Shown one piece after another: positions 1 through 7,045 of a stretch of DNA of 7,045 bases (its first letter is position 1; each line of letters begins with the position of its first letter). The notes under the pieces were generated by a model. It was not told the DNA's origin, ran no database searches, and saw only the letters and a program-made list of their open reading frames with translations. The position numbers were made by a program, and so were the translations under genes. The stretch comes from a virus (taxonomy: Duplodnaviria > Heunggongvirae > Uroviricota > Caudoviricetes): the IMG/VR virus record IMGVR_UViG_2547132277_000003; one strand, 5' to 3'.

Positions 1-852
1 TTCCTGCGTGAAGCGCTGTTCCGGTGTCTGCCTGAACTGGCGAAGTTCTCGCCTGTCAGCAACGTCAGCCATCCACTGCTCCAGTAGCTGGTTAACATGG
101 GCGAAGCTGTCGAACCGGCGGTACCGGATGAAGAAGTTTTCCTTGAGGTATTTCACCATCCGTTCAACCTTACCTTTGGTTCTGGCCCTTCGTGGACGGC
201 AGGCCCGTGGCAGGAAGCCATAGTGATCGGCCAGCAGCAGGAACCCGGAGTTGAACACCACCTTCCCGTTGTTATTTTTCAGCACTGCGGCTTTCTGGTT
301 ATCGACCAGCACGGTTTTCACGCTACCGCCGAAGTAGCGAAAGGCGCGGACCAGTGACTCATAGGTATGTTCAGCATCCTGCTTTGGTGCCGCGAAGACA
401 TGGAAGCGACGTGAGAACCCCAGCGTATTAACCGCGAAGTTAACCCTGCATCGTTGCCCGGCAACCTCAGCCTCAACTTCTCCCCAGTCATGCTGTAGCT
501 GGTAACCGGGCTGAGTTTCGAAGCGAACCGTTTTCTTCGATGGCCGCATCTTACGTTTGGGCTGGATGTAGTAGCGCAACATGGAACGGCCACCGGTATA
601 ACCCATCGCTTTGATTTCCGCCAGGATGACCTCGCCGTTCCAGACGTTCTCAGCCAGACGCATATCTATATAGTCCATGAACGGCTTGAGTTTGGCCATT
701 TTGTGGCGTGTTTTTCTGGCCGGAGGTTCCGGGTATTTCAGGTACCGTCTGACGGTCCGTTCAGAGCAACCAACCTGAGTGGCAATATCAACAATATACG
801 CACCTTGCTGGCGCATTTGCTTTATCATGTAAAAATCCTCTCTGCTCAGCAT
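1..852 (-). CDS. istA: IS21-family transposase IstA, N-terminal ~284 aa (C-terminus beyond window)
   Basis: Manual minus-strand translation from ATG (complement of 850-852) gives MLSREDFYMIKQMRQQGAYIVDIATQVGCSERTVRRYLKY..., an N-terminal HTH. Further in are ...GYQLQHDWGEVEAEV... (first Asp of the DDE core) and ...RPRRARTKGKVERMVKYLKENFF..., all typical of IstA. The frame stays open to position 1 (last residues read ...VADRRELRQFRQTPEQRFTQE). It is absent from the ORF track only because no stop lies in the window. Confidence 0.85.
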   Translation of the reverse strand, partial: MLSREDFYMIKQMRQQGAYIVDIATQVGCSERTVRRYLKYPEPPARKTRHKMAKLKPFMDYIDMRLAENVWNGEVILAEIKAMGYTGGRSMLRYYIQPKRKMRPSKKTVRFETQPGYQLQHDWGEVEAEVAGQRCRVNFAVNTLGFSRRFHVFAAPKQDAEHTYESLVRAFRYFGGSVKTVLVDNQKAAVLKNNNGKVVFNSGFLLLADHYGFLPRACRPRRARTKGKVERMVKYLKENFFIRYRRFDSFAHVNQLLEQWMADVADRRELRQFRQTPEQRFTQE

Positions 853-953
853 GAGTGTTCCCTTTGTGGTGTAGGAACCTTAAGGAAACAACATGTTGGG
901 TGGAGCGGACAATCCAAATGGTGAATTACTGTCTTATATCATTGGCGCTGACA
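1..953 (-). mobile_element. IS21-family insertion sequence, left end plus 5' part of istA (partial; continues beyond window start)
   Basis: Contains the istA 5' region. On the minus strand a TG-initiated putative terminus TGTCAGCGCC (plus 944-953) lies 101 bp upstream of the istA start, and a related copy TGTCCGCTCC (plus 903-912) sits 41 bp inside it, matching the multiple-terminal-repeat layout of IS21-family ends. Boundary placement is inferred, not verified. Confidence 0.55.
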
Positions 954-1988: not shown

Positions 1989-2681
1989 TTAATTATGTCT
2001 CTTAAGGGTTTGCGACTGACTGATTAAGACCTTTCCAAAGACCATGAATCGGTGTTCGTTTTCGCTAGTAATTCCCCATTCACGGTAAATCTGGTTATCA
2101 GAAATCACCAGCAGTTTGTCAGGAATCATTTGAAGTCTTTTAACGTATATTTTGTCATCAAAACCAAAGACATATATACCATCACCATCAAACTGATTGA
2201 TGCTGACATCAACGAAGATGAGATCTCCGGGCTCAATGGTTGGACACATACTGTCCCCACGAACGTTGATAACTTTGATGTGATTGGCTGGTCGTCCGCC
2301 GAACATTGATACAGCATTATCAGTTCTGTATTCGATGGCATGAATCACATCAATGACATCACCGCCCTGGATAAGGCCATTTCCCGCACTGGCACTGATA
2401 TCCAGCATTTCAATACGGAACACATCCTTCACCTGCGCAACATCCTCATTATTACTGTTTTTATATACAGTATTACTTTTGTGGGCAGAGGTAAAGAGAT
2501 CAGCAATATCAACACCTAAGCTCTTGGCAATATTACTCAGTGTTTGTTCGGTAAATTGTTTTTGCTTACCCGTTTCTAAGCGCGAGATGTTCGCCGCATC
2601 TACTCCTATCGCTTCAGCGAGATCGGCGATTTTCATGTTCTTCGCTTGGCGAAGTTGTCTGACTCGGTTTCCTATGTTCAT
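1989..2681 (-). CDS. CI-type prophage repressor (N-terminal XRE-family HTH + C-terminal S24 LexA-like autopeptidase)
   Basis: 230 aa. N-terminus IGNRVRQLRQAKNMKIADLAEAIGVDAANISRLETGKQ is a classic HTH. The C-terminus carries the S24 signature GDSMCPTIEPGDLIFVD (Ser nucleophile) and IYVKRLQ (general-base Lys), with an Ala-Gly candidate cleavage site in DISASAGNG. The start has no Shine-Dalgarno and sits 6 nt after a -10-like hexamer. Confidence 0.9.
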   Translation of the reverse strand: MNIGNRVRQLRQAKNMKIADLAEAIGVDAANISRLETGKQKQFTEQTLSNIAKSLGVDIADLFTSAHKSNTVYKNSNNEDVAQVKDVFRIEMLDISASAGNGLIQGGDVIDVIHAIEYRTDNAVSMFGGRPANHIKVINVRGDSMCPTIEPGDLIFVDVSINQFDGDGIYVFGFDDKIYVKRLQMIPDKLLVISDNQIYREWGITSENEHRFMVFGKVLISQSQTLKRHN

Positions 2682-2778: not shown

Positions 2779-3039
2779 ATGCAATCACCATTACGAAATG
2801 TGCGTAAGGCGCATGGTTTCACTTTGCAGCATGTTGCTGCGGGTGTTCAAGTCAATCCAGCGACGTTGAGTCGTATTGAGAGGCTGGAGCAGATTCCATC
2901 TATCGAGCTTGCAGAACGTTTAGCCAATTTTTTTAAGGGTGAAGTCAGCGAAATGCAGATTCTTTATCCGGCACGTTTTCAATCTAGCCAAAACCAGAAT
3001 GGGTTTAAACCACAGGAACAGGAGGTGAACCGTGGGTAA
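2779..3039 (+). CDS. Cro-like HTH transcriptional regulator (XRE family)
   Basis: 86 aa, divergent from the repressor, strong SD GGAGGG 3 nt... upstream of the ATG at 2779 (2771-2776). HTH segment GFTLQHVAAGVQVNPATLSRIERLEQ. Its 3' end overlaps the next gene by 8 bp. Confidence 0.8.
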   Translation: MQSPLRNVRKAHGFTLQHVAAGVQVNPATLSRIERLEQIPSIELAERLANFFKGEVSEMQILYPARFQSSQNQNGFKPQEQEVNRG

Positions 3040-3583
3040 GCATCACTGGAAAGTAGAAAAACAGCCTGAGTGGTACGTGAAAGCTGTCAGAAAAACTATC
3101 GCAGCGTTGCCGGGGGGGTACGCTGAAGCTGCTGACTGGCTGGATGTAACAGAGAACGCATTATTTAACCGCCTTCGTGCCGATGGCGATCAGATTTTCC
3201 CGCTGGGATGGGCAATGATTTTGCAACGTGCTGGTGGAACTCACTTCATTGCTGACGCTGTGGCGCAGTCTGCAAATGGCGTCTTTGTGTCTCTTCCTGA
3301 TGTCGAGGATGTGGACAACGCCGATATCAACCAACGCCTGCTGGAGGTCATTGAACAGATCGGCAGTTATTCAAAACAGATTCGTTCAGCAATCGAAGAC
3401 GGTGTAGTGGAACCGCATGAGAAAACTGCAATTAACGACGAGCTATATCTCTCAATTTCGAAGCTGCAGGAGCATGCAGCACTGGTCTACAAAATCTTTT
3501 GCATTTCAGAAAGTAATGACGCCCGCGAGTGTGCAGCTCCGGGCGCCGTGGCGTGTCGTGACTGTGGAGAAACTAACGCATGA
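3032..3583 (+). CDS. phage CII-like regulatory protein (CP76-type, ~183 aa)
   Basis: GTG start at 3032 preceded by AGGAGGT (3019-3025). Position immediately after cro and its size fit the enterobacterial prophage CII-like (CP76) family. The family call is from memory of that family and is not verified; the C-terminus has a Cys cluster [13 protein letters not shown]. Confidence 0.65.
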
Positions 3584-3918
3584 ACAGTTTAACAACACAC
3601 TACCGTCGCTCGCAACTGATTGCGCTTCCTGTACCGGGTGGAAAAGCGAAGGTGGAGTATTGCTATGCAGTAAATGTACCAGGTGACAGGGAAATTGTAA
3701 CCCACAGCTTTGCAGAGTGGGCTGTGGGTGATTTCAACCGGCAGAAGGAGACAGTCCTTTGCGACAAGTTAACCGCTGGTTCAAAGATCACTACGGAGTG
3801 CCCGTCAGAGTCATTCGTTGGGAACCGGAAACACAACGGGTTATCTACCTCCGCGAAGGCTATGAGCATGAGTGCTTCAGTCCGCTCGAACAGTTTCGTC
3901 GTAAATTCAGGGAAATAG
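3580..3918 (+). CDS. hypothetical protein (112 aa); frame is uncertain in its 3' half
   Basis: ATG at 3580 overlaps the CII-like stop (ATGA) and has GGAG 9-10 nt upstream. The N-terminal ~57 codons look protein-like, but the 3' half ([48 protein letters not shown]) is Ser/Thr-rich and reads like an out-of-frame translation. Confidence 0.3.
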
Positions 3919-3938
3919 AGGTCGGTCATGAGCACTAA
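3759..3938 (+). CDS. hypothetical small protein (59 aa, TTG start), alternative frame to the 3' half of 3580-3918
   Basis: Manual translation in the third frame: (M)[58 protein letters not shown]. Balanced, aromatic- and charge-rich composition. A perfect SD AAGGAG (3745-3750) lies 8 nt before TTG at 3759. Missed by the ORF track, probably because of its short length. Confidence 0.35.
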
Positions 3939-4869
3939 ATTAACCGGCTATGTATGGGATGGTTGCGCAGCGTCAGGCATGAAATTATCCAGCGTGGCAA
4001 TTATGGCCCGCCTGGCTGATTTCAGTAATGACGAAGGTGTGTGCTGGCCATCAATTGAAACCATTGCCCGTCAGATTGGCGCGGGGATGAGTACCGTCAG
4101 AACGGCTATCGCACGGCTGGAAGCAGAAGGCTGGTTAACGCGTAAGGCGCGTCGCCAGGGTAACCGCAATGCGTCGAATGTTTATCAGCTTAACGTTGCG
4201 AAGCTTCAGGCAGCGGCATTTTCTCAACTGTCAGATTCTGACCCGTCAAAATCTGACGCATCAAAATCTGACCCGTCAAAATTTGATGCGTCGAAATCTG
4301 GCAAAAAAGCGGGTTTTCACCCGTCAGAATCTGGCGGGGATCCGTCAGTAAAATCAAAACATGATCCGTCAGATAAAAAAACTTCTCGTCCGGACGCTTC
4401 GCAACCGGACACGCAGACGGCTGAACAGGAGTTTTTAACTCGCCATCCTGATGCGGTTGTATTCAGCCCTAAAAAGCGCCAGTGGGGAACGCAGGATGAT
4501 TTGACCTGCGCACAGTGGCTCTGGAAAAAAATCATCGCCCTGTACGAGCAGGCCGCCGAATGTGACGGCGAGGTGGTTCGTCCCAAAGAACCGAACTGGA
4601 CAGCCTGGGCAAACGAAATTCGCCTGATGTGTGTGCAGGATGGTCGTACTCATAAACAAATCTGCGAGATGTACAGCCGCGTCAGTCGCGATCCGTTCTG
4701 GTGCCGTAACGTGCTCAGCCCGTCGAAGCTGCGGGAAAAATGGGATGAGCTTTCCCTGCGCTTATCGCCGTCCGTCAGCACGTACACCGAAAAACGCGAA
4801 GACCCGTACTTCAAAGCCAGTTACGACAACGTGGACTACAGCCAGATCCCGGCAGGATTCAGGGGGTGA
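3928..4869 (+). CDS. phage replication initiation protein, O-like (N-terminal winged-HTH domain, iteron-encoded linker, C-terminal domain)
   Basis: 313 aa, SD GAGGT (3918-3922) 5 nt before the ATG. N-terminus VWDGCAASGMKLSSVAIMARLADFSNDEGVCWPSIETIARQIGAGMSTVRTAIARLEAEGWL resembles the HTH of prophage replication initiators. The central low-complexity linker (SDSDPSKSDASKSDPSKFDASKS...) is encoded by tandem DNA repeats, as in lambda O where the origin lies inside the gene. Confidence 0.8.
   Translation: MSTKLTGYVWDGCAASGMKLSSVAIMARLADFSNDEGVCWPSIETIARQIGAGMSTVRTAIARLEAEGWLTRKARRQGNRNASNVYQLNVAKLQAAAFSQLSDSDPSKSDASKSDPSKFDASKSGKKAGFHPSESGGDPSVKSKHDPSDKKTSRPDASQPDTQTAEQEFLTRHPDAVVFSPKKRQWGTQDDLTCAQWLWKKIIALYEQAAECDGEVVRPKEPNWTAWANEIRLMCVQDGRTHKQICEMYSRVSRDPFWCRNVLSPSKLREKWDELSLRLSPSVSTYTEKREDPYFKASYDNVDYSQIPAGFRG
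4228..4380. repeat. iteron-like tandem repeats (putative phage replication origin) inside the O-like gene
   Basis: Five contiguous 15-bp units at 4228-4302 (cTGTCAGATTCTGAC, CCGTCAAAATCTGAC, GCATCAAAATCTGAC, CCGTCAAAATTTGAT, GCGTCGAAATCTGGC), then further CCGTCAG-initiated copies at 4321, 4342 and 4366. Each unit has internal dyad symmetry (GTCAGA / TCTGAC). A moderately A-rich stretch (4343-4381) follows. Confidence 0.6.
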
Positions 4870-6013: not shown

Positions 6014-6336
6014 CGACGTTAACTCAATGCCAGCAGCAGGTGCTGGATATGCTGATTTCTTATCAGAAAGAACGTGGCTTCCCGCCAACCAATCAGGAGG
6101 TGGCAACCATGCTGGGATACCGTTCGGTGAATGCAGCGGTGGAGCATCTTCGCGCACTGGAGAAAAAAGGCGTCATCACGATAAAGCGTGGCGTGGCCCG
6201 GGGGATAACGCTTCATACCGCGGTGAAGGACGACGACAGCGAGGCGGTCGGGATTATCCGCGCACTGCTTGCCGGTGAGGAAAACGCAAGGCTGCGTGCA
6301 ACCCACTGGTTACATGAGAGGGACCTGAAAGTATGA
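6010..6336 (+). CDS. LexA-like DNA-binding-domain-only protein (winged HTH, no S24 peptidase domain)
   Basis: 108 aa. LTQCQQQVLDMLISYQKERGFPPTNQEVATMLGYRSVNAAVEHLRALEKKGVITIKRGVARGITL parallels the LexA N-terminal domain (LTARQQEVFDLI...[36 protein letters not shown]...) but the protein ends about 35 residues later with no Ser/Lys dyad. ATGA overlap with the Dam stop. Confidence 0.75.
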   Translation: MTTLTQCQQQVLDMLISYQKERGFPPTNQEVATMLGYRSVNAAVEHLRALEKKGVITIKRGVARGITLHTAVKDDDSEAVGIIRALLAGEENARLRATHWLHERDLKV

Positions 6337-6614
6337 AGCTGATCCTGCCTTTTCCGCCCAGCGTGAACACGTACTGGCGACACCCCAACAAAGGGGCGTT
6401 TGCTGGTAAGAGCCTGATAAGCGCGGCGGGGCGAAAATTCCAGAGCGCGGCGTGCGCAGCAATAGTTGAGCAGTTACGTCGTCTGCCGAAACCAACGTCG
6501 GCACCTGCTTCAGTGGAGATCGTGTTGTTTCCTCCGGATAGACGGGATGGAAAACCGCCGCCATCGCCTGAACTGGGAAATGAGCCGGGACAGGTGTTTG
6601 CGGCTTGGCAGTAA
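6333..6614 (+). pseudogene. rusA: RusA-family Holliday-junction resolvase, C-terminally disrupted (catalytic Asp region missing)
   Basis: N-terminus MKLILPFPPSVNTYWRHPNKG matches the RusA signature (E. coli RusA LPWPPSNNRYYRHNRG). Similarity continues through ...VEIVLFPPDRR, but the expected RRDLDN...K...D catalytic segment is replaced by DGKPPPSPELGNEPGQVFAAWQ-stop. No alternative frame in 6538-6660 restores it. ATGA overlap with the upstream gene. Confidence 0.55.
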
Positions 6615-6650
6615 CCGGCTCATTTAAACCGTCTGGTCTGTTTCCTCCGG
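6526..6650. repeat. 12-bp exact direct repeat TGTTTCCTCCGG (6526-6537 and 6639-6650) flanking ~101 bp at the rusA breakpoint
   Basis: Seen directly in the sequence. The first copy lies within rusA codons just before homology is lost; the second lies 44 bp upstream of the right-hand transposase start. Confidence 0.6.
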
Positions 6651-6693
6651 CTCTACAAAAATAATGTCCATCATTTTTAATGGACACTATCGT

Positions 6694-7045
6694 ATGAAAC
6701 ACCGGACCTGGATCACTGAAGCTTTACGTCTTCACTTTGAAGAACATTTACCCCGGGTTGTGGCCGGGCGTCGCCTGGGTGTACCAAAATCAACAGTTTG
6801 TAGTATGTTCGTGCGCTTTCGGAGAGCTGGCCTTTCGTGGCCTTTGCCCGCAGGCATGTCGGAGCAGGAACTTGATGCCTGCCTTTACGGACAATTTTCC
6901 ACGATACCAGTCGTACGTCCTGAAAGCACCGTTATATCCGAAGCCCCCGTGGTAAAAAAACGTCCCCGGCGGCCCAACTTCCCTTATGAGTTTAAAATCG
7001 CCTTAGTGGAGCAGTCACTGCAGCCCGGAGCCTGTGTGGCGCAGA
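6694..7045 (+). CDS. IS transposase, N-terminal part with two HTH regions (family uncertain, IS3-family OrfA-like; partial, runs off window end)
   Basis: Manual translation from ATG 6694: MKHRTWITEALRLHFEEHLPRVVAGRRLGVPKSTVCSMFVRFRRAGLSWPLPAGMSEQELDACLYGQFSTIPVVRPESTVISEAPVVKKRPRRPNFPYEFKIALVEQSLQPGACVAQ..., no stop before the window end. The second HTH resembles IS2-type OrfA ([25 protein letters not shown]). It differs from the left-hand IstA, so the two flanking elements are different. Confidence 0.6.
   Translation, partial: MKHRTWITEALRLHFEEHLPRVVAGRRLGVPKSTVCSMFVRFRRAGLSWPLPAGMSEQELDACLYGQFSTIPVVRPESTVISEAPVVKKRPRRPNFPYEFKIALVEQSLQPGACVAQ

Follow-up and report, generated by a model that had tools for sequence, protein, structure and literature searches.

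The window analysed in this study is a 7,045-nt stretch of DNA from a virus of the class Caudoviricetes (IMG/VR record IMGVR_UViG_2547132277_000003), and the region of interest lies between ymfL, which encodes a CII-like regulator, and a gene for an O-like replication protein. We found that the open reading frame (ORF) ymfM, which occupies this interval on the plus strand (3580-3918), encloses most of a second gene, encoding a DUF4222 protein, in another frame, and that across this second gene the ymfM frame varies freely in sequence and yet is kept free of stop codons in the closer relatives. The interval is likely, in our judgment, to be explained by four superimposed layers. ymfM would start by ATGA coupling to ymfL, and only its first ~58 codons would form a conserved small protein module. 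A 59-aa DUF4222 protein, a Tudor/SH3-like β-barrel, would be translated internally from its own AAGGAG and TTG. Ribosomes that had started at the ymfM ATG would cross the DUF4222 gene in its +1 frame, making a disordered, Ser/Thr-rich tail of ~53 residues, and would stop at the TAG at 3916, 9 nt before the ATG of the O-like gene and in the same frame. The open frame would thus mainly deliver ribosomes to the O-like start, in a coupling chain from ymfL through ymfM to O. The fourth layer would be a constitutive antisense RNA of ~75 nt, the counterpart of ECS003, that starts opposite the ymfM ATG, terminates inside the 3' end of ymfL, and probably lowers ymfL and ymfM as lambda oop lowers cII.

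The ymfM ORF has 112 codons, from the ATG at 3580 to the TAG at 3916-3918, and is the counterpart of b1148 of Escherichia coli K-12. It lies directly after ymfL and is colinear with the K-12 ORF, with a DNA identity of 96% over 551 nt. The two YmfM proteins differ at four residues, all of them in the tail; the N-terminal halves are identical, as are the DUF4222 proteins. A first-pass annotation of this DNA, made from the letters alone, had described a frame-1 ORF at 3580-3918 with coupling signals, and this holds: the ATG overlaps the TGA stop of ymfL as ATGA, and the product is 112 aa long. No Pfam or NCBIfam model matched the frame-1 peptide. YmfM matches PHROG 1170 (E = 6e-70), and its first 59 residues by themselves match PHROG 20047, a family of 63 residues. 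Of 80 viral contigs that resemble e14, 79 have an intact 112-codon ORF, and the polymorphism is concentrated in the tail; these contigs came from a scan with a DUF4222 alignment that returned near-identical e14-type loci only, and they therefore inform on polymorphism and not on diversity.

The second gene, for the DUF4222 protein, has 59 codons on the plus strand (3759-3938) and lies in the -1 frame relative to ymfM. As the first-pass annotation had noticed, the open part of frame 3 is confined to 3732-3938 and carries a TTG start at 3759; the AAGGAG, a Shine-Dalgarno (SD) sequence, is at 3745-3750, 8 nt upstream of the TTG. The product matches Pfam PF13973 over residues 2-53 (profile positions 3-52/53) with 67.3 bits against a cut-off of 27 (E = 8.6e-19), belongs to a family of small proteins from lambdoid prophages that is also PHROG 1343, and is identical to RefSeq WP_001250269.1. 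NCBIfam has no model for either YmfM or the DUF4222 protein. At the homologous position, 25 of 30 relatives have an ATG, the e14 group has TTG and two have GTG, and purine-rich GGAG/GAGG blocks precede the start in the relatives. A stop codon in the DUF4222 frame lies 0-3 nt before the ATG in two relatives (loci L008 and L036). These features indicate that DUF4222 has an independent translation start. AlphaFold2 gave a confident small β-barrel (predicted local distance difference test score, pLDDT, of 84), and the predicted fold is Tudor/SH3-like; a profile search against the PDB sequences gave no meaningful match. The literature that mentions DUF4222 only lists it, with nothing published on its function. 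To this the present analysis adds that ymfM contains 53 of the 59 codons and that the e14 group uses a TTG start. The earlier suggestion of two short overlapping genes is therefore right as to the overlap, but the frame-1 gene is not short and spans these 53 codons.

To compare relatives, 36 closer loci were gathered by DNA or DUF4222 similarity, with the ymfM frame playing no part in the choice. At least 12 genera are represented (Escherichia, Shigella, Klebsiella, Citrobacter, Enterobacter, Kluyvera, Kosakonia, Atlantibacter, Raoultella, Silvania, Phytobacter, and Buttiauxella), together with the cultured phages LLS and mEp390. Each of the 36 loci has both ORFs. The +1 frame of DUF4222 is open in 36/36, running from an M(N/T)SL start ~170 nt upstream to one fixed stop, and the +2 frame is broken in all of them. 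Relatives with a single uninterrupted ORF in one frame, a possibility that had been raised for this interval, were not found among the closer loci, all of which have the two-frame layout instead.

Selection on the frames was estimated by the Nei-Gojobori method, as the ratio of the proportions of nonsynonymous and synonymous differences (pN/pS), separately in three diverged clades. Upstream of DUF4222, the ratio was 0.33-0.49 in the ymfM frame, against 0.94-1.6 in the two others. Within the overlap, it was 0.12-0.23 in the frame of DUF4222 and 1.2-2.6 in that of ymfM. Because the conserved N-terminus of YmfM (MNSLT...SQL) complements the promoter of the antisense RNA described below, the ratios were recomputed from codon 14 on, and the result was unchanged. 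These values indicate that amino-acid selection on the ymfM frame is limited to the first ~58 codons and that in the overlap it acts on the DUF4222 frame only. Purifying selection at the amino-acid level was thus not found in both frames of the overlap, although selection for keeping both of them open was. Of the three frames that had been called protein-like, frame 1 is so in its first ~58 codons and frame 3 at 3759-3938, where the DUF4222 match and the pN/pS values agree; the frame-3 segment further upstream is not. The Rz/Rz1 genes of phage lambda are a nested, out-of-frame pair in which both frames are functional in the overlap. The arrangement here is similar in having two ORFs on one strand, in different frames and with their own starts, the smaller lying almost wholly inside the larger. 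It is different in that amino-acid constraint falls on DUF4222 only, and the outer frame is constrained just to stay open.

The evidence that openness itself is selected comes from synonymous sites in the DUF4222 codons. At four-fold degenerate sites where a third-position purine would put a stop codon into the ymfM frame, purines were found 0 times in 156, compared with 286 times in 603 (47%) where they would be harmless. Of 24 columns, only the four that are fully stop-vulnerable (codons 4, 18, 28, and 43) are all-zero, and this column-rank contrast has a P of ~1e-4 (about 1 in 10,600) and needs no independence of the sequences. At column 16, GTG occurs only where the following base is not A. 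We also randomised the synonymous codons with each DUF4222 protein sequence and the local codon usage held fixed. The probability of a +1 frame open to codon 52 was then 0.015-0.14 per sequence, and that of a first stop exactly at codon 53 was 0.001-0.058. All 33 unique sequences have both properties, and the +1 frame is open in 37/37 unique close relatives. The ymfM stop itself is formed by DUF4222 codon 53, which is always a rare NTA codon (ATA in 20, TTA in 9, and CTA in 1) and which persists as NTA through Ile/Leu exchange. The tail (codons ~60-112, 3759-3915), which is Ser/Thr-rich and has pLDDT values of 32-40 at residues 68-112, is thus predicted to be disordered and free to vary in sequence, yet it is kept stop-free.

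The place at which the ymfM frame ends suggests what the openness may be for. At the junction TAG-AGGTCGGTC-ATG (3916-3930), the ymfM stop is followed by 9 nt that hold an SD sequence for the O-like gene (AGAGG, 3917-3921) and then by the O-like ATG in the same frame. The geometry of stop, 9 nt, and in-frame ATG is found in 23 of 26 distinct junctions; two of the others have a spacing of 6 or 3 nt, also in frame, and for one no downstream gene was found. The stop of DUF4222 varies in position from +17 to +101 while the geometry of the ymfM stop and the next ATG stays. In the window, the DUF4222 TAA ends 8 nt past the O-like ATG, giving an overlap of 11 nt with the O-like gene. Translational coupling by termination and reinitiation occurs at phage and operon junctions. 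The ATGA of ymfL and ymfM, the ymfM stop 9 nt before the next ATG and the DUF4222 stop 8 nt after it all resemble such junctions. However, a carrier frame of 53 codons laid over another gene would be unusual, and the likeness here is one of geometry.

The first ~58 codons of ymfM (3580-3758) are marked as a module by pN/pS, by stand-alone homologues, and by PHROG 20047. The consensus of the module is M-N/T-S-L...PQ(L/F)R..P..GG...Y.(Y/V)...NHSF.EWAVGDF, and AlphaFold2 predicts three strands and two helices at a pLDDT of 58-72. The upstream halves of the loci fall into at least three diverged types, and the database proteins include recombinants that pair N-half types with different tail types; the DUF4222 start is therefore a mosaic boundary. 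A search with the N-half against 1.8 billion representative proteins found stand-alone homologues of 59-68 aa. In these loci the gene order is cII, ymfM-N (59-64 aa), and then DUF4222 and a replication gene, or in one case KilA-N. Three of the distant loci, L133, L134, and L135 (1501-1875), carry ymfM-N (61-64 aa) and DUF4222 (59-63 aa) in tandem with junction overlaps of 1-17 nt, and the N-half gene ends at the DUF4222 start. The +1 frame of DUF4222 contains 3-4 stops in two of these three (L134 and L135). Among distant DUF4222 genes without a ymfM partner, two are closed in this frame and two are open (Providencia and Yersinia); phiNP and EKP1 have closed +1 frames. In Entomohabitans teleogrylli (L129, 2001-2237), the body of DUF4222 is deleted and a ymfM-N gene of 78 aa lies directly before the O-like gene, which makes this locus in effect a natural DUF4222 deletion variant. 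From the separate tandem genes and these variants we conclude that the N-half and DUF4222 are separable small genes. Moreover, the tail cannot be essential to the N-half protein, since the distant relatives and L129 do without it. A large enterobacterial clade has the read-through tail as a derived feature and maintains it.

In another group of phages the same frame goes further. In SfV, ST64B, Stx1, Stx2a, and Hafnia phages, it lacks the stop at codon 53 and continues into Phage_ASH (PF10554), and in the Stx1 phage it runs past Phage_ASH into a Rha domain. Loci of this type are L037 (974-1810, SfV orf37), L040 (ST64B sb41), L038 and L126 (Stx1/Stx2a), L121 (Hafnia phage yong2), and L127 and L128 (E. 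coli genomes). The Prokaryotic Genome Annotation Pipeline (PGAP) treats them inconsistently: in one genome, it calls DUF4222 and an 'ash family protein' from an internal start, and in another, a single 383-aa 'Rha family' ORF from the ymfM-like ATG without DUF4222.

In phage lambda, the RNA oop (77 nt) is transcribed from pO and is antisense to the 3' end of cII. A similar cis-antisense small RNA is encoded here on the minus strand from 3582 to ~3508; the ymfM ATG is complementary to its 5' end. A 5' stem-loop (3579-3551) precedes a bulged terminator hairpin of 11 bp (3547-3518), after which comes AUUACUUUCU, a U-rich tail. Its candidate promoter (3615-3586, minus strand) lies inside ymfM codons 3-12 and consists of a -35 box TTGCGA (3615-3610), an 18-nt spacer, and a TG-extended -10 box TAAACT (3591-3586), a pattern that matches only once in the window. 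Across 31 diverse loci, there is little or no variation in the TTGC of the -35 box and in the -10/start block TAAACTGTTCATGCG, and these conserved boxes probably act as the promoter. The terminator helix is 99.4% paired over the same loci, with 6 of its 11 pairs changed on both sides; none of 500 shuffles reaches this, and slid controls gave 31-52%. In eight loci, including the window, the terminator has a G-U pair whose plus-strand counterpart would be a mismatch of C and A, so that only the minus strand fits. Loci of the Klebsiella and mEp390 types have a different cII gene, which ends ~60 nt earlier and leaves the hairpin in non-coding DNA; it is therefore the RNA that is conserved and not the C-terminus of CII. 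The promoter and terminator are also recognisable in the distant tandem loci L133, L134, and L135, with further compensatory changes, and the antisense-RNA elements are kept in L129.

An RNA of this kind has been described in K-12. ECS003 is the most abundant promoter-associated cis-antisense RNA candidate found there, is constitutively expressed, and lies opposite the ymfL/ymfM junction (Shinhara et al., PMC3175480). Its main Northern band is ~70-78 nt with a faint precursor of ~120 nt, and its size by sequencing was 116 nt (PMC3175480). The published sequence maps to the minus strand of the window from 3582 leftwards. The first-pass annotation had thought a small regulatory module plausible here, as oop occupies the equivalent interval in lambda; an oop-like RNA is indeed encoded between ymfL and the O-like gene, but at the ymfL/ymfM junction and not at the hairpin at 3700-3729. 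ECS003 resembles oop in its place and orientation, in being a short constitutive RNA whose promoter is just downstream of a CII-like gene, in being transcribed back into the 3' end of that gene, and in having two stem-loops and an intrinsic terminator. It differs in that its promoter lies within a coding region (ymfM codons 3-12) and in that the RNA also covers the start codon and ribosome-binding site of ymfM. By this analogy, its target is probably ymfL/ymfM, and the RNA may be regarded as a positional and functional analogue of oop and not as a member of the same family. An Rfam scan of 3200-4200 returned no family at E ≤10. A scan of 3300-4100 with consensus promoters and terminators gave no promoter at threshold and one weak minus-strand terminator, and missed both elements of ECS003, which have an 18-nt spacer and a bulged stem. 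The covariation indicates that an oop-type RNA without an Rfam family is conserved across many enterobacterial prophages.

A further conserved element is located in the N-half of ymfM. The perfect 9-bp stem at 3700-3708 and 3721-3729, which the first-pass annotation had reported correctly, encloses a 12-nt loop and is the only perfect 9-bp inverted repeat in 3450-4000; its extended fold has a free energy of -30.9 kcal/mol (z = -3.2). The hairpin ends 30 nt before the DUF4222 start, or in distant relatives before the N-half stop. Its 6-bp core (C-C/U-A-C-A/C-G/A and partner) is kept in 17 loci that cover all N-half types and the distant stand-alone genes, with changes on both sides at three pairs and with G-U pairs that fit the plus strand only. 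His CAC occurs with Val GTG in 13/13 cases and Tyr TAC with Val GTA in 4/4, and the change of GTG to GTA is synonymous. The hairpin is kept in L129 too, where it contains a G-U pair. The element is probably a conserved mRNA structure.

Several points weigh against the four-layer explanation. The tail is not universal, since the distant relatives and L129 lack it. The 37 DUF4222 sequences are related, and counts made per sequence overstate their independence; the column-rank test avoids this problem of kinship but draws on four columns. The antisense promoter coincides with part of the conserved stretch at the YmfM N-terminus (MNSLT..SQL). It is only the geometry of the junction that suggests a coupling role for the tail, and a literature search found no ribosome-profiling paper mentioning ymfM. 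Finally, the read-through in the Ash-type loci fits a linker of a longer protein as well as it fits a conduit for ribosomes. This last point makes plausible the proposal that the tail itself is functional, as a disordered, Ser/Thr-rich tail or linker whose sequence is unimportant (a degron, spacer, or interaction region). The purging of stops, the continuation of the frame into Phage_ASH in SfV-type phages, and the filamentation caused in published work by the full 112-codon ORF are all in agreement with it. However, the pN/pS of the tail exceeds 1, and the four-fold sites of DUF4222 are near saturation; no tail residue is conserved beyond what DUF4222 imposes, and the tail has low pLDDT values. 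N-half genes of 59-78 aa also stand alone, and the stop tracks the ATG of the next gene exactly. We consider a functional tail improbable, but it is the strongest of the rival explanations. It might also be supposed that only the N-half and DUF4222 matter and that the open tail is an accident carried along by hitch-hiking, its openness being unselected. The unconstrained sequence of the tail, the distant relatives that end ymfM-N at the DUF4222 start, and the two partnerless DUF4222 genes (Providencia and Yersinia) that are open in +1 fit this view, and an antisense frame is also open in the window (3663-3935). Chance does not readily account for the complete absence of stop-making purines when comparable, otherwise saturated sites have 47%, for the restriction of GTG at column 16, or for a rare NTA codon at position 53 that is kept through Ile/Leu replacements. 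Moreover, the antisense ORF is broken in LLS and mEp390, and the ymfM frame never is. An accident therefore seems quite unlikely.

Three other readings, which had been raised by the first-pass annotation, fare much worse. Programmed -1 frameshifting from ymfM into the DUF4222 frame, with the hairpin at 3700-3729 as a stimulator, would agree with the -1 relation of the frames and the presence of a stable, conserved hairpin nearby. However, the hairpin is upstream, and not downstream, of the sole region before the DUF4222 start in which both frames are open (3732-3758), the window lacks an X_XXY_YYZ heptamer, no such heptamer is conserved in 18 loci, and in L008 and L036, the DUF4222 frame opens just 0-3 nt before its ATG. 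DUF4222 also has its own start codon, mostly ATG and in some loci TTG or GTG. A recoding site is thus rejected as very improbable. Also rejected, and even harder to credit, is a split of one ancestral gene of N-half and DUF4222 by a frameshift mutation or a sequencing error. A few database proteins do fuse the N-half in frame to DUF4222 (P0031, P0053, P0059, and P0065), but these fusions differ in their junctions, are near the window sequence where they match it, and are drawn for the most part from collections of read assemblies; indels or errors are their probable origin. A layout of two frames, in which DUF4222 has a start and an SD sequence of its own, is present in the 36 loci, in thousands of E. 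coli genomes, and in cultured phages, and distant relatives have two separate genes. The annotation had also pointed to a zinc-ribbon-like peptide in frame 3, which would be a third small gene at about 3558-3686. A Cys-rich stretch is present (3516-3686, plus strand, within an ORF at 3417-3686), but its spacing is CASC-x11-CSKC and not x13. The CxxC-x11-CxxC motif and possible GTG starts at 3558 and 3564 are what can be said for such a gene. It has no SD sequence and no family match in Pfam or PHROG, so that of the three peptides for which protein and profile searches had been proposed, those of frame 3 (DUF4222) and frame 1 (PHROG 1170) gave matches and this one did not. Its cysteines are lost in the Klebsiella relatives, the pN/pS of its frame is 0.94-1.6, and the antisense RNA gene and the N-half of ymfM already account for the conservation of the DNA. 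A gene here has hardly any probability, and the apparent zinc ribbon is due to chance.

The four-layer explanation has consequences for a characterised gene of K-12. Ansari et al. (bioRxiv 10.1101/2020.11.19.390815) expressed the ymfM ORF from pBAD24, observed filaments that lacked Z rings, and identified ymfM as SfiC, the SOS-inducible inhibitor of Z-ring formation. In the literature, ymfM mRNA is described as rising late in the SOS response. However, the 339-bp ymfM ORF holds the SD sequence, the start, and codons 1-53 of DUF4222, which make up the whole Pfam domain, and a deletion of ymfM also removes most of DUF4222. The constructs thus carry or remove both products, and the published data therefore do not separate the 112-aa YmfM, the 58-aa N-half, and DUF4222. 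The molecular identity of the division inhibitor is ambiguous, and the ymfM phenotype is not assignable to one product yet. If the locus has two products, 53 codons would be translated in two frames, one of them informative (DUF4222) and the other selected only as a conduit, and the SfiC block may come wholly or partly from DUF4222 or from the N-half alone and not from the 112-aa YmfM. Taken as a whole, this combination of a two-product locus, a ribosome conduit of 53 dual-frame codons, and a division block perhaps due to DUF4222 or the N-half is a tentative proposal, which we think is more apt to fail in some part than to hold throughout.

The annotation of the locus is in conflict on the same DNA. 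K-12 and EcoCyc have ymfM and no DUF4222. PGAP calls DUF4222 (TTG 3759, WP_001250269.1) and never ymfM in those RefSeq records of E. coli that were inspected, one of them from a K-12 derivative; in the 100%-identical genome it lists ymfL, DUF4222, and an HTH gene. In SfV/Stx-type prophages, one long 'Rha/Ash' ORF is sometimes annotated. ymfM, DUF4222, and ECS003 are thus each already on record and have never been considered together. A search of the literature on ymfM together with DUF4222, overlap, or ribosome profiling found no account of the nested relationship, and the nested frames, the selection for openness only, and the resulting ambiguity of SfiC appear to be undescribed. The locus offers a clean natural case of an overlapping frame under selection for openness and not for sequence.

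The interval belongs to a lambdoid immunity-replication region of the e14/SfII type. Over the 551 bases that surround the finding, a prophage of E. coli O6:H16 2014EL-1346-6 is 100% identical, the Shigella phages SfII and SfIV are 99% identical, and the K-12 e14 element is 96% identical; similar DNA is present in 2,700 of 5,426 complete E. coli genomes. A cI-like repressor gene (1989-2681, minus strand) and a cro-like gene (2779-3039) are followed by ymfL (3032-3583, plus strand). The ymfL product matches Pfam Phage_CP76 (E = 1.5e-13) and the NCBIfam YmfL equivalog model with 168 bits (cut-off 90), and the gene is named as such in the annotation of the 100%-identical genome. The O-like gene (3928-4869, plus strand) encodes a replication or primosomal protein with an HTH_36 N-terminus (Pfam HTH_36, E = 4e-11; DnaD_N weak), and its counterparts in SfII and SfIV are annotated as replication protein O or primosomal protein.

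Some observations concern the ends of the DUF4222 gene and the strand opposite to it. A small predicted hairpin (3742-3764) pairs the AAGGAG with the region of the TTG start (GCAGAAGG...CCUUUGC), and could limit internal initiation of DUF4222 unless it is opened by ribosomes translating ymfM. At the other end, the conserved 'DDHEH'-type C-terminus of DUF4222 (3919-3938) overlies the SD sequence, the ATG, and the first codons of the replication gene, and its conservation may reflect these downstream start signals and not the function of DUF4222. The minus-strand ORF at 3663-3935 (90 aa), which is open across DUF4222, is listed as a gene in the records of some Klebsiella phages; it is not conserved and is probably spurious.

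Residues 19-50 of YmfM (3634-3729) match repeats ('LPVGGGDVTYCYAVDNTGDVTL', for example) of giant proteins that are 500-1,700 aa long. These matches are multi-copy, with up to 13 stretches and E values down to 5e-25, and the N-half also weakly and repeatedly matches 'VTYCYAV-NTG' repeats of giant surface proteins. They probably reflect a shared β-hairpin motif and not homology.

The copy in the window is probably a cryptic remnant, like e14, because the prophage is degraded in the 100%-identical genome. In the annotation of that genome (L001), an IS21-family element lies on the left (window 1-950 and 6384-7045 are concerned). At the other side, the RusA gene (window ~6333-6545) is truncated beside accessory genes of IS66.

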